From the IMG/VR virus record IMGVR_UViG_2563366806_000002: a stretch of 32,811 nt of DNA. The stretch is one strand, 5' to 3'. Of the stretch, positions 2,150 to 5,322 are shown in pieces. Positions within the stretch are counted from its first letter, which is position 1, and every line of letters begins with the position of its first letter. This DNA is from a virus (taxonomy: Duplodnaviria > Heunggongvirae > Uroviricota > Caudoviricetes). Made by a program: the position numbers and the translations under genes. The notes under the pieces were generated by a model. That model did no database searches and was not told the origin of the DNA. It saw only the letters and a program-made list of their open reading frames with translations.

Positions 2150-2377
2150 ATGAACGATAACGCCCCATCACTTGCCAGCCTGTTAAAGCACGGTTGCCAG
2201 GTCACGCACTACCGCAATACACGCGGCTGGATTGAATGCCCGGACGGGCGTTTCTTTAAACCGGAACCGAATAAGGTGCGCTTTATTAAAGGTATGAGTA
2301 AGCCTTTTGTTTATACGAAGAAGATAAACAAAGGCTTATTTAGTGCCTTAGCAAGTTTATTTAGAAAGCTGCTTTAG
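2150..2377 (+). CDS. Hypothetical protein
   Basis: 75-aa ORF, AT-rich, third gene of the insert. Confidence 0.4.
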   Translation: MNDNAPSLASLLKHGCQVTHYRNTRGWIECPDGRFFKPEPNKVRFIKGMSKPFVYTKKINKGLFSALASLFRKLL

Positions 2378-2463
2378 TAATTAAGTAACAGATAAAACTT
2401 TTTCTACCTGTCGTCACTTTATTAAGTGATGGCGCATTCACTCACCAAAAAAAGGGGTTAATT

Positions 2464-2895
2464 ATGTTTGGCATGTTCAAGAAAAAAACTGCTGCTGTAA
2501 AAGTTGAATTAAAGAAAGTTGAAAATCGCGATTTGATGGAGGCCATTGTTGGTGGCTGTCTGCTGGTTGCTGCTGCTGATGGTGAAATTGAGAAAGAGGA
2601 AACCGCAAAGCTCGATCAGCTGCTGCGCTCCAATCCCCGCCTGAGCCATTACGGCAACGAAATCACCGCACTGATCACCCGTTTCACTGAACAGCTTGAG
2701 GCAGGTTTTCGCGTTGGTCGCATGAACATCCTGCGTGAAATCGAAGATATCAAAAACGACCCGAAAGAAGCGGAGGAAGTCTTCGTCAACATGCTGACCA
2801 TTGCCGAATCTGACGGCGAGATCGAGCCGGAAGAACAAAAGGTACTGGAAGAGGTTGGGCGTCGTCTGGGCCTGCGCGTTGAGGATTACATCTGA
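2464..2895 (+). CDS. TerB-like (tellurite-resistance TerB family) protein
   Basis: 143 aa with two DGEIE(K/P)EE repeats typical of TerB-like helical proteins; RBS AAAGGGG upstream. Confidence 0.5.
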   Translation: MFGMFKKKTAAVKVELKKVENRDLMEAIVGGCLLVAAADGEIEKEETAKLDQLLRSNPRLSHYGNEITALITRFTEQLEAGFRVGRMNILREIEDIKNDPKEAEEVFVNMLTIAESDGEIEPEEQKVLEEVGRRLGLRVEDYI

Positions 2896-3077
2896 TGAGC
2901 CAGATGCTGAGCATGTTGCGGCCCGCGCTGGTTCTGCTGCTGGCTTTCATGGTGGTAGCGGTGGACTTCACCAGTTATCTGCTCTCAGCAGTAGGCGATC
3001 TGTTCTTCGTGGGGGCGCTCGTTGTTCTGGTATGGCCTGCAATTAAGCCAGCCAAAGAGCAGCAGGGCGACGAGTAA
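2895..3077 (+). CDS. Small hydrophobic membrane protein, translationally coupled to the TerB-like gene
   Basis: 60-aa ORF, two hydrophobic stretches; start overlaps the upstream stop (TGATG). Confidence 0.45.
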   Translation: MSQMLSMLRPALVLLLAFMVVAVDFTSYLLSAVGDLFFVGALVVLVWPAIKPAKEQQGDE

Positions 3078-3144
3078 GAGAGGCACCGGGAAACTGGTGC
3101 TTATCCGGGGCGTTACTTCCGAGTGGTGCGCCTGATAAGCGGCA

Positions 3145-3555
3145 GTGATGGGGGATAGGGTTATGAGTATCGGGCAAGAAAAACCAGTATCCGGGCGTCA
3201 GATGTTCCTTGAACAGCGCGCCCGTTTGCAGTCGAGCATTTCAGTTTCCCGCACCAATGACACGGCGAGCCGTTTTAATCGCCTGGGCGAGACTCAGAAA
3301 AAGGTGATCATCCTGCTGGCAAACGAAGCCGCGCAGCGGTTTAAGGATCTGCCGTCCCTGACTCATTCCCATCTCACTATGCCTTTCGAACAGTTCAGCT
3401 CTCAGGACAAAGTGAGCCTGATGTTGGGCATTAAGCGCCTTGCCGAGCTGGCTGCGGCGTTGCCGTGGGAGTTTCCCGATTATGCCGCGCCGCGCCTTGA
3501 AATTCAGGCGTTACGCGAATCACAACCACCCGCGCCGGATGGCGCAGTCAATTAG
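3145..3555 (+). CDS. Hypothetical early protein (start may be ATG at 3163)
   Basis: 136-aa ORF in the early operon; RBS GGGGGA precedes the internal ATG. Confidence 0.5.
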   Translation: MMGDRVMSIGQEKPVSGRQMFLEQRARLQSSISVSRTNDTASRFNRLGETQKKVIILLANEAAQRFKDLPSLTHSHLTMPFEQFSSQDKVSLMLGIKRLAELAAALPWEFPDYAAPRLEIQALRESQPPAPDGAVN

Positions 3556-3624: not shown

Positions 3625-4566
3625 ATGATTCGATCACTACTCAAATGGCCCGGTGGCAAAAGCCGCGTGATGCCTGAATTACTCCCGCATTTACCAAAGG
3701 CTGGTTGCCTCGTGGAGCCTTTTGTTGGCGGCGCTTCCGTGTTCCTCAATACCGATTATCGCCGCTATATCCTTGCGGATATCAACCCAGACCTGATCCG
3801 CCTTTATCGTGAGGTGAAGAGCAATCCTGAGCTGGTTATTGACCTTGCCCGCCCGCTCTTTGCGACCGGCAATTCCAAAGAGGAATACTTACAGAACCGC
3901 CGCATTTTCAACGGTACTAAAGGCTTGCTTGATGTGGCCCGCGCGGCTCTGTTTCTTTACCTCAACCGCCACGGCTACAACGGCGTGGTGCGTTACAACC
4001 AGAGCGGCGGTTATAACGTGCCGTTTGGTCAGCATAAAAGCGCGCCTTACTTCCCGGAGGCGGAGATCCGGCAGTTTGCTGAGAAGGCCAACGACACCAA
4101 AGCCATTTTCTTGTGCAGCTCGTTTCAAAATACCCTCAAAGTGATGGTTGGAACGGATGAAGCCATCTACTGCGATCCGCCATACCTGCCTGCCAGCGAA
4201 ACCGCCAATTTCACTCAATACCACACCGAGCCATTCACCGAGCAGCACCACCGCCAGTTAGCGGCGGAGCTGCTGGAAGTGAACCGCAAATATGGCGCGC
4301 CGGTTGTCATTTCCAACAGTGACACCGAAACCACCCGCGAGATTTACCACCGTTTCCGCCTGCATGAAATCGACGTGCAGCGCTCTGTTAGTACTGACGC
4401 CAGCAACCGCCAGAATGCTAAAGAGGTGATCGGCGTTCTCAAGGTATGCGAAGGGTGCGGGCGCGCGGGCGGAGGCAACTGCCCGGACTGCGGGCCGTGC
4501 TGTGGTGATGCCACTTACAACGCGATGGTTGCAGCGGGCGCTTTTGATGAGCAAGGGGGTTTCTGA
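3625..4566 (+). CDS. dam: Dam-family N6-adenine DNA methyltransferase with Cys-rich C-terminal tail
   Basis: Strong similarity to E. coli Dam (LKWPGGK, CLVEPFVGGASVFLNTD, LFLYLNRHGYNG, DPPY motif); extra tail CEGCGRAGGGNCPDCGPCCGD. Confidence 0.9.
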   Translation: MIRSLLKWPGGKSRVMPELLPHLPKAGCLVEPFVGGASVFLNTDYRRYILADINPDLIRLYREVKSNPELVIDLARPLFATGNSKEEYLQNRRIFNGTKGLLDVARAALFLYLNRHGYNGVVRYNQSGGYNVPFGQHKSAPYFPEAEIRQFAEKANDTKAIFLCSSFQNTLKVMVGTDEAIYCDPPYLPASETANFTQYHTEPFTEQHHRQLAAELLEVNRKYGAPVVISNSDTETTREIYHRFRLHEIDVQRSVSTDASNRQNAKEVIGVLKVCEGCGRAGGGNCPDCGPCCGDATYNAMVAAGAFDEQGGF

Positions 4567-4802
4567 TGGCGAGCTTAATTGAATTTTTAGAGGCGGTTGG
4601 TCTGGAAAATGTGACCGTTCAACCACTTCACCAGTGCATTACGGGCGTAGCGATGGAGAGAAAAGGCGGTGCCAAAGTCAGCTTTTTGACCAATGAAATA
4701 ACCCCATCTGATGCATTCGGAGAGATGAAAAGAACGGCGTTCATCGTCTGGATGGACGCTAAGAAGTTTGATGCCGCACTTGAAAAAACGAAGGGCAAAT
4801 GA
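4566..4802 (+). CDS. Hypothetical protein
   Basis: 78-aa ORF, stop/start overlap with dam (TGATG). Confidence 0.5.
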   Translation: MASLIEFLEAVGLENVTVQPLHQCITGVAMERKGGAKVSFLTNEITPSDAFGEMKRTAFIVWMDAKKFDAALEKTKGK

Positions 4803-5014
4803 GCATGAAACAGAATAAGAGCGCGGTTTTATCATCAATCCAAAATGTTGCTGTTTTCTTCAATTACGGCGGTGAAACAGTAGCGTTAAAAATGACAGCC
4901 GAACAAAAGAGAGTGATCGGCCTGTTTGCTATTTCAGCCGTTGAAGGTACTGCGGAACTGGTGCGGGTGCCTCATTTGTCATTACCAGCAGATCCAGAAA
5001 TGGAGGCTCTGTAA
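4799..5014 (+). CDS. Hypothetical protein
   Basis: 71-aa ORF, ATGA overlap with the upstream gene. Confidence 0.5.
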   Translation: MSMKQNKSAVLSSIQNVAVFFNYGGETVALKMTAEQKRVIGLFAISAVEGTAELVRVPHLSLPADPEMEAL

Positions 5015-5322
5015 TGTCAAAAATCTATATCGCTGGCCCAATGAGCGGTTTGCCTGGCTTTAATCGCCCGGCGTTTCACCGTGCAGCCGCGCACATTGTA
5101 CGGCGCGGAAATGTTGCTCTTAATCCGGCGATCCTGCCGGATGGCTTAGAGCAAGCGGAGTATGTGGATATCTGCCTTGCCATGCTTCGCTGCGCTGATG
5201 GCATCTTCATGCTGGACGGTTGGCAGCAGTCTGCTGGGGCAAAAGCAGAATACGCGCTTGCTGAAAAGTTGGGGCTGGATATTCAGCACCAGATGATTGA
5301 TCGGTACGTGGGCGCACGATGA
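5014..5322 (+). CDS. DUF4406-like (nucleoside 2-deoxyribosyltransferase-like) protein
   Basis: 102 aa, IYIAGPMSG motif; translationally coupled on both sides. Confidence 0.55.
   Translation: MSKIYIAGPMSGLPGFNRPAFHRAAAHIVRRGNVALNPAILPDGLEQAEYVDICLAMLRCADGIFMLDGWQQSAGAKAEYALAEKLGLDIQHQMIDRYVGAR

Follow-up and report, generated by a model that had tools for sequence, protein, structure and literature searches.

Positions 2464-3077 of IMG/VR virus record IMGVR_UViG_2563366806_000002 (Caudoviricetes; 32,811 nucleotides (nt), the whole of which we call the window) hold two overlapping genes that, judged by sequence, are a homologue of the tciA-tciB module of phage P1. The window is a P2/186-like Escherichia coli prophage with an integration site adjoining cpxP. 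The first gene, tciA, encodes a TerB-family protein and the second, tciB, a predicted small inner-membrane protein. A phage TerB gene nearly always comes with an overlapping gene for a small membrane protein from one of two unrelated families, and this rule sharpens the hypothesis that TerB is coupled to the membrane. We see about an even chance that TciA and TciB form a membrane-tethered TerB complex of lytic growth, which would serve superinfection exclusion or envelope protection and not tellurite detoxification. The family, the gene pair and the names are already known, and RefSeq annotates the genes of identical E. coli prophages as "TerB family protein" and "DUF3927 family protein". What we add is only the P2/186-like host element and the rule on the coupled membrane partner.

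The pair offers a small and tractable entry to what the TerB domain does, a domain that also occurs in Shango, Bunzi, Dionysus, the ter clusters and DjlA. Here TerB stands alone with one 60-residue membrane partner, and the module is spread over at least four unrelated phage types and is dispensable in the laboratory. Such a two-gene system is suited to the study of TerB-membrane coupling, ion or metal binding and superinfection effects. The features of the module are as follows.

2452-2457, + strand: Shine-Dalgarno-like AAGGGG, 6 nt ahead of the tciA ATG, read from the sequence and preceded by the C/A-rich tract CACTCACCAAAAAAA
2464-2895, + strand: tciA, a 143-amino-acid (aa) soluble, acidic, all-helical TerB-family protein with an ATG start (Pfam, PHROG, PDB, AlphaFold2)
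2578-2601, + strand: first TerB acidic motif, D39-G-E-I-E-K-E-E46, with D39, G40, I42 and E46 invariant in 39 homologues
2812-2835, + strand: second TerB acidic motif, D117-G-E-I-E-P-E-E124, with G118 and E124 invariant and D117 and I120 at least 90% conserved in the 39 homologues
2881-2897, + strand: translational-coupling junction with GAGGA (2881-2885) and TGATG (2893-2897), the tciA stop overlapping the tciB start
2895-3077, + strand: tciB, a predicted 60-aa small inner-membrane protein (DUF3927) with an ATG start (Pfam, PHROG, hydropathy, AlphaFold2)
2964-2999, + strand: polar stripe D24-x2-S27-x3-S31-x3-D35, with the four named residues identical in all of 12 divergent TciB sequences, some of them from Pseudomonas

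The two coupled genes

The first-pass annotation had described a 143-aa open reading frame (ORF) with two DGEIE repeats and had read it as TerB-like. Both repeats are present, at D39-E46 and D117-E124, and the search with hidden Markov models (HMMs) bears out the family assignment. The TerB profile PF05099 matches residues 26-142 (profile positions 2-113 of 118) at 58.8 bits, well over its cut-off of 24.4 (E = 8.3e-16), and phrog_632, "tellurite resistance", matches positions 1-143 of 143 (E = 1.8e-63). When a profile built from the 39 homologues was compared with the PDB, it matched the Klebsiella TerB structure 2JXU (E = 3.9e-14; 12-143 against 18-150 of 153). Since this alignment to a solved TerB covers nearly the full length, TciA is a complete TerB and not a fragment. 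Among the 39 homologues, conservation is highest in the two D-G-x-I-x3-E motifs. AlphaFold2 predicts six helices, with a predicted local distance difference test (pLDDT) score of 93; a Foldseek search of this model against the PDB returned PG1108 (2H5N) at E = 0.03, and the rest was globin-like noise, so that we take no more from it than a helical bundle.

Other assignments of TciA score far lower. The DjlA model PRK09430 of NCBIfam reaches 26.9 bits against a cut-off of 162, with only its TerB-like part aligned; there is no J domain, as TciA terminates at residue 143. The DUF533 match is sub-threshold as well (25.8 bits, cut-off 29.6). PADLOC gave a single marginal match to TciA, PDC-S48 (E = 0.001, 16 bits), which lacks a matched stretch. 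The PADLOC copy used predates Dionysus, and its models include Shango and Bunzi but not Dionysus.

In a tblastn search of sequenced phages, TciA is 89.6% identical to P1 TciA (called TerB in the P7 annotation) and 88.9% identical to the D6 counterpart; direct alignment to P1 TciA gives 90%. The tciA DNA is only about 79% identical to that of P1 and synonymous sites are saturated, which argues that any transfer relative to P1 is old and not recent. Megablast of positions 2300-3200 against sequenced phages detected no near-identical DNA, and the kinship with P1 is seen only by protein comparison. The ratio of nonsynonymous to synonymous substitution rates (dN/dS) of tciA is 0.02-0.07; TciA is thus unusually constrained, under very strong purifying selection.

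The two genes meet in GAT TAC ATC TGA TGA GCC, where the A of the TGA stop codon (2893-2895) is also the A of the ATG start codon (2895-2897). The one-base stop/start overlap noticed in the first-pass annotation is thus there, as TGATG. The overlap is TGATG or TAATG in 83 of 83 close loci, each with a TciB-like ORF; P1 has TAATG, and JLK-type loci have a 4-nt overlap. RefSeq, through its Prokaryotic Genome Annotation Pipeline (PGAP), instead takes the second ATG, at window position 2904, as the start of the DUF3927 gene, for a product of 57 aa. We consider the start at 2895 (60 aa) likelier because the overlapping ATG is conserved, the internal methionine is not, and the Shine-Dalgarno-like GAGGA lies 9 nt ahead of the first ATG.

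TciB matches DUF3927 (PF13064) with 31.5 bits against a cut-off of 25 (E = 1.8e-7) and phrog_1470, "TciB-like", at E = 3.7e-20. Its identity to P1 TciB is 41%, and VDFTS...S...D...LVWP is kept. The family is small: among 1.84 billion cluster representatives only 56 were found at E <= 0.001, and nearly all of them are 50-65 aa long. We also asked whether TciB could be a piece of TerC or of some other known transporter, but neither Pfam nor NCBIfam gave such a match. The tciB dN/dS of 0.1-0.4 is below 0.5, again with saturated synonymous sites, and tciA and tciB are both real genes under purifying selection. The proposal that the 60-aa hydrophobic ORF is a real small membrane protein is therefore upheld by its conserved family, by purifying selection and by its coupling to TerB.

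A hydrophobic stretch extends from L8 to I50 of TciB, with the basic residue R9 at one end and K51 and K54 at the other. V21, V23, D24, S27, S31 and D35 are invariant across the 12 divergent TciB sequences, and on a helical wheel D24, S27, S31 and D35 fall inside an 80-degree arc. AlphaFold2 models the monomer as one continuous helix of residues 2-50 (pLDDT 86). A hydrophobic helix of 49 residues exceeds one membrane crossing, and together with the basic ends this favors a hairpin or an oligomer with both ends cytoplasmic. In such an N-in/C-in arrangement the Asp/Ser face would probably lie in or near the outer leaflet.

Linkage of TerB and a membrane partner across phages

The dependence of the two genes on each other was assessed in both directions. 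For the forward test, loci were fetched with three TerB queries only, and collapsing of duplicates left 136 non-redundant phage and prophage loci. A small membrane-protein gene overlaps the TerB stop codon in 129 of them. The partner is TciB-like in 86 loci and a phrog_27356-type single-pass membrane protein in 43, and 7 loci have neither. Nearly all of these partner genes overlap the end of the TerB gene by either 1 or 4 nt. The reverse test covered 123 loci retrieved with TciB queries, mainly from viral contigs; a six-sequence alignment run on species-representative genomes returned only four loci. TerB is adjacent by HMM in 117 of the 123. Three of the other six have TerB on inspection (one divergent TerB, two effects of ORF calling or contig ends) and three are truncated TciB remnants. 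From these loci, TciB appears essentially never to occur without TerB.

As an unrelated membrane protein replaces TciB while the overlap stays, a membrane partner as such appears to be needed. In our judgment this is the point to be weighed most heavily in favor of a membrane-tethered TerB complex.

The comparative data also bear on the possibility that the TerB gene alone is functional, the small ORF being no gene at all or its pairing with TerB a coincidence. The ORF has 60 codons only, PGAP chose a different start, and TciB diverges fast. On the other hand, the Pfam score is over its cut-off, the start overlap is found in every close locus, dN/dS is below 0.5, four residues show no variation between Enterobacterales and Pseudomonas, and linkage to TerB is near-exclusive. 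We regard this possibility as effectively refuted by the comparative data, with next to no probability left.

The carriers of the pair are P1-like phage-plasmids, P2-like prophages, lambdoid phages, and Salmonella and Erwinia jumbo phages. These Salmonella and Erwinia jumbo phages are lytic. In the lambdoid JLK-2012 the pair lies between Q with tRNA genes on one side and the holin gene on the other.

The module was reportedly named tciA-tciB in phage P1 in 2004. P1 and other carriers of its operon (P7, D6, the lambdoid JLK-2012 and pSLy3-type phage-plasmids) share with the window the same families, the same order and the same stop/start overlap in tciA-tciB(-tciC). There are also differences. 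TciA is 90% identical between P1 and the window and TciB only 41%; P1 also has tciC, a further gene for a small membrane protein, and tRNA genes beside the operon, and the window has neither. No ORF lies between tciB and the downstream phrog_7428 gene, and JLK-2012 likewise lacks tciC. The carrier differs as well, as the window is an integrated P2/186-like prophage in which the pair follows fil in the early operon, unlike P1.

Work on P1-like elements describes the module as accessory. The genes tciA, tciB and tciC were non-essential in a genome-wide CRISPR interference (CRISPRi) screen of P1 (PMC10695390), and they are transcribed during P1vir infection. The names of the P1 tci genes rest on homology. 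tciABC makes up one of the eight regions in which P1-like elements vary, and in one subgroup it is missing from about half of the members (PMC9603915). A study of a D6-like plasmid called the "operon ... incomplete" and its function untested (PMC6799933).

Several observations on the other loci were made in passing (numbers with the prefix L denote comparison loci). In most Pseudomonas-type loci (L167-L224; e.g. L176:3433-3639) TerB overlaps by 4 nt with a 67-68-aa single-pass membrane protein. This protein, phrog_27356, has the pattern C-x-(W/Y)YGYQT(D/E)R-x-T(K/R)...VGC with two conserved cysteines, is without a Pfam family and is unrelated to TciB. A CsrA-like gene (MLILTRR.GE.I...) lies about 240 nt 3' in many of the Pseudomonas-type loci. 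The tciAB genes stand beside tRNA genes in P1 (L001:2915-3068, 4710-4785), JLK-2012 (L083:2599-2832) and the Salmonella jumbo phage (L085:1256-1720), and in both P1 and JLK-2012 these include tRNA genes for Asn and Thr. The Rfam family STnc100 is found just 3' of tciB in JLK-2012 (107 bits) and just 5' of tciA in P1 (34 bits, below threshold). When the locus L013 (IMGVR_UViG_3300035562_000049) is compared with the window, the tciA DNA is 91% identical (synonymous divergence, dS, 0.47) and tciB 67% (dS 1.1), which points to recombination where the two genes meet and to a shuffling of tciB alleles.

The early operon and its exchangeable cargo slot

The tciA-tciB stretch recurs with 100% identity in prophages on the chromosomes of E. 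coli ECONIH4 and CAVP776, and 11 of 5,426 complete E. coli genomes match it. The prophage genes run in the order integrase, helix-turn-helix repressor, Cox, DUF4761, a small membrane ORF, Fil, TerB-family protein and DUF3927, followed by a hypothetical gene, a Dam methylase, three small genes and the replication endonuclease A. Every gene from cox through A is on the + strand. A consensus scan gave promoter and terminator counts in the window that equal chance, with none around 2378-2463 or 3078-3162. Because the genes between cox/fil and A all lie on the + strand and terminator signals are not above chance, we place tciA-tciB in the early lytic operon, 3' of fil and 5' of the replication gene A. 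The first-pass annotation had put the two-gene unit at this early-operon position and had suggested an accessory module, and both proposals are borne out, the second by a sibling prophage that holds a different gene in the same slot. The surroundings are listed here.

2150-2377, + strand: fil, a phage 186 Fil-type cell-division inhibitor (Pfam Phage_186_Fil, E = 6e-24; phrog_816), the 5' neighbor outside the module
2410-2433, + strand: conserved leader hairpin GTCGTCACTT-TATT-AAGTGATGGC, with the core palindrome TCACTTTATTAAGTGA at 2414-2429, 5' of the cargo slot
2469-3099, + strand: exchangeable cargo, tciA-tciB plus 22 nt, from comparison with the sibling prophage of E. coli CFSAN051542
3163-3555, + strand: gene for a 130-aa phrog_7428 protein (E = 3e-68; start according to RefSeq), function unassigned, the 3' neighbor and part of the backbone

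The sibling prophage, in E. coli CFSAN051542, uses the same cpxP site and is 89-94% identical to the window on either flank of the module. The likeness stops at window position 2468 and restarts at 3100. In between (L370:5171-5798), the sibling carries an unrelated 120-aa gene, phrog_8618, whose function is unassigned, plus about 330 nt. Since an unrelated gene is found there, the slot that holds tciA-tciB is one for exchangeable cargo. The boundary of the exchange lies 5 nt inside the tciA ORF. The phrog_7428 gene is kept in the sibling prophage, which is without tciAB, and belongs to the backbone and not to the module.

The position directly 3' of fil, in the same operon, raises the possibility that TciA and TciB act with Fil to block septation of the infected cell, as the "inhibition of cell division" in the P1 gene name would have it. 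Both the annotation of P1 and a recent transcriptome of P1vir count tciABC, together with icd and kilA, among the genes that control division. In Yersinia pestis terZAB is required for filamentous growth and can restore it, and the filamentation determinant in E. coli is terZABC of R478 (PMC4633105). This evidence concerns terZAB jointly, though, and never TerB alone, and the P1 name is based on homology alone. Moreover, the sibling prophage has fil without tciAB, and other phages have the pair without fil, for example beside tRNA or lysis genes. We consider a role in blocking division unlikely.

Proposed role and the conserved leader

Among the closest known counterparts of TciA are the TerB proteins of the ter clusters (terZABCDE(F) of the IncHI2 plasmid R478, E. 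coli KL53 and Klebsiella, the source of 2JXU). Their TerB has the same full-length helical domain with two DG-x-I-x3-E motifs. It has been described as amphitropic, and it is found at the inner membrane in a complex with its partner TerC according to the literature, whereas the partner in the window is a 60-aa protein unrelated to TerC. The ter clusters lie on plasmids or in chromosomal stress islands, whereas TciA is carried by a phage. In Y. pestis terCDE is needed for tellurite resistance and deletion of terZAB has no effect; terZAB is linked to filamentation (PMC4633105). The smallest tellurite-resistant E. coli construct cited is terBCDEF. As resistance is carried by terCDE or needs at least terBCDEF, a tellurite phenotype from TerB alone is unlikely.

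This also bears on lysogenic conversion, in which the pair would give the lysogen tellurite or oxidant resistance. The family name "tellurite resistance" and the PHROG category "moron" speak for it, and the authors of the D6-like plasmid-prophage study raised it (PMC6799933). Among the early-operon genes of the window, however, no TerZ, TerA, TerC, TerD or TerE was identified; the neighbors are fil, the phrog_7428 gene, dam and others. The requirement for terCDE or terBCDEF, a repressed early operon and carriage by jumbo phages all argue otherwise, and we regard lysogenic conversion as highly improbable.

Membrane-anchored TerB-like domains at the cytoplasmic face are found in DjlA (transmembrane helix, TerB-like domain and J domain), where the TerB-like domain follows the membrane helix, in YebE/DUF533 and in BnzA of Bunzi. 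In the window, by contrast, the anchor and TerB are separate coupled polypeptides, without a J domain. TerB domains also occur in the defense systems Shango, Bunzi and Dionysus, for which "membrane surveillance" has been proposed. Dionysus (DinA/DinB/DinC) resembles the pair in that a TerB-like protein is combined with a membrane-acting partner, the pore-forming DinC. The pair is nevertheless without the helicase/ATPase of Shango (SngABC) and without the MAEBL-domain protein or the four-transmembrane pore-former of Dionysus, and no gene for a helicase, ATPase, MAEBL protein or four-transmembrane toxin is adjacent to it. The pair is also encoded by phages and not by defense islands. For the stand-alone TerB of Erwinia jumbo phages, competition with superinfecting phages has been proposed (PMC7824862).

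We propose that, once the prophage is induced or a cell infected, the early transcript would yield TciA and TciB in fixed proportion. TciB would insert into the inner membrane, probably in the form of a hairpin or an oligomer whose two ends face the cytoplasm, and would tether or partner TciA at the cytoplasmic face. The result would be a two-polypeptide version of the "membrane anchor plus TerB domain" layout seen in DjlA and BnzA, and of the way TerB is paired with TerC in the ter operon. The complex may then alter or monitor the inner membrane while the cell is infected. The likeliest benefit would be to shield the phage's cell from superinfecting phages or membrane-damaging agents, in keeping with what ter clusters do in phage inhibition and against pore-forming colicins, and the complex would be dispensable for phage growth itself. 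A "stress or membrane-associated" role, as suggested in the first-pass annotation, is likewise only a proposal.

Use in the lytic cycle is suggested by the early operon in the window, by the position between Q and holin in JLK-2012, by the carriage in jumbo phages and by transcription in P1vir infection. That the pair is dispensable cargo is suggested because it was non-essential in the CRISPRi screen, is absent from about half of one P1 subgroup and is swapped in the sibling prophage.

Lytic-cycle use would also suit an anti-defense function, in which phage TerB acts as a decoy that mimics or titrates the TerB sensors of the host (Ter, Shango, Bunzi, Dionysus) and so blinds membrane-surveillance immunity. 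TerB domains occur in validated defense systems, DinB is predicted to homodimerize, and TciA is strongly constrained and has moved among P1-like, P2-like, lambdoid and jumbo phages. But PADLOC gave no Shango or Bunzi match, only the marginal PDC-S48, and a dedicated membrane partner is not obviously required for a decoy. The knock-down caused no growth defect on laboratory E. coli either, although this host may lack the relevant systems. Overall we judge a decoy to be distinctly unlikely.

A number of points weigh against a membrane-tethered TerB complex. The AlphaFold2 model of the TciB monomer, a single 49-residue helix, fixes no topology. TciB evolves much faster than TciA, and tciB alleles look shuffled relative to tciA, while tight co-evolution predicts otherwise. 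Pseudomonas phage Cygsa01 has a TerB that stands alone with a hairpin after it, and a Vibrio phage TerB lies inside a TerD-TerD-x-TerC-TerB cluster. Two apparent TerB-TciB fusions, which would have spoken for a physical interaction, were rejected as artefacts: P0029 (171 aa, both domains) has a frameshifted junction and C-terminus and a cut N-terminus, and P0174 (176 aa) is a chimera of a histidine-phosphatase fragment, garbage sequence and TciB. In the literature searched we found no experiment on the function of tciA or tciB. Finally, we infer lytic-only expression from position, and the conserved leader element described below could hide independent control.

A bolder extension of the membrane-tethered complex is that TerB and an interchangeable, coupled small membrane protein are a minimal two-component membrane device. 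TerB might sense a perturbation of the membrane or of ions, for example DNA injection by a rival phage, and the invariant Asp/Ser face of the small protein might then change ion permeability. Phages of Enterobacterales would use TciB/DUF3927 as the partner, and many phages of Pseudomonas phrog_27356. The device could be a stripped-down, phage-borne relative of Dionysus- or Bunzi-type immunity, or a dominant-negative inhibitor of such systems. We offer this only tentatively and think it rather unlikely.

The leader hairpin has a 10-bp stem on RNA folding. Among P2-like prophages it is kept in 24 unique upstream variants despite diverged flanks and diverged tciA synonymous sites, and the same hairpin precedes the different cargo gene of the sibling prophage (L370:5117-5140 region). 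In 8 variants in which pairing was scored, 100% of cells are paired; three pairs vary one-sidedly (CG/UG, GU/AU/GC and UA/UG) and all substitutions keep pairing, but none is double-sided, so covariation cannot prove the stem. The fold of the whole leader has a z-score of -0.98. No sigma-70 consensus promoter was found at the leader, Rfam at permissive E-values gave only noise on the tciA leader, and the window has no second copy of the palindrome, such as an operator in the immunity region.

Other leader features were noted across the loci. A C/A-rich tract lies right before the Shine-Dalgarno sequence in nearly all tciA leaders, Pseudomonas included, even where the leaders have no other kinship; that of the window, CACTCACCAAAAAAA, is at 2439-2453. 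The tciA genes of lambdoid (JLK-2012-type) and jumbo phages share a leader of about 100 nt (L083:2900-3000, L085:1760-1860, also L343 and L345), without an Rfam match, that contains the long-range stem GGGGTGAGC...GCTCACCC.

Some further genes of the operon deserve mention; no tRNA gene was found in the window by ARAGORN. A 60-aa hydrophobic ORF at 1955-2137 (phrog_19198), which RefSeq calls a 57-aa hypothetical protein, overlaps the end of the DUF4761 gene 5' of fil, and the early operon therefore encodes two small membrane proteins, this one and TciB. The Dam-type adenine methylase (3625-4566, 313 aa) has a cysteine-rich C-terminal tail (CEGCGRAGGGNCPDCGPCCGD...); in the sibling prophage the methylase gene is shorter (855 nt) and a gene for a 3'-5' exonuclease stands ahead of it. 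At 5014-5322 a 102-aa protein resembling DUF4406 and nucleoside 2-deoxyribosyltransferases (phrog_355, E = 4e-41) is encoded by a gene that overlaps and directly precedes gene A.

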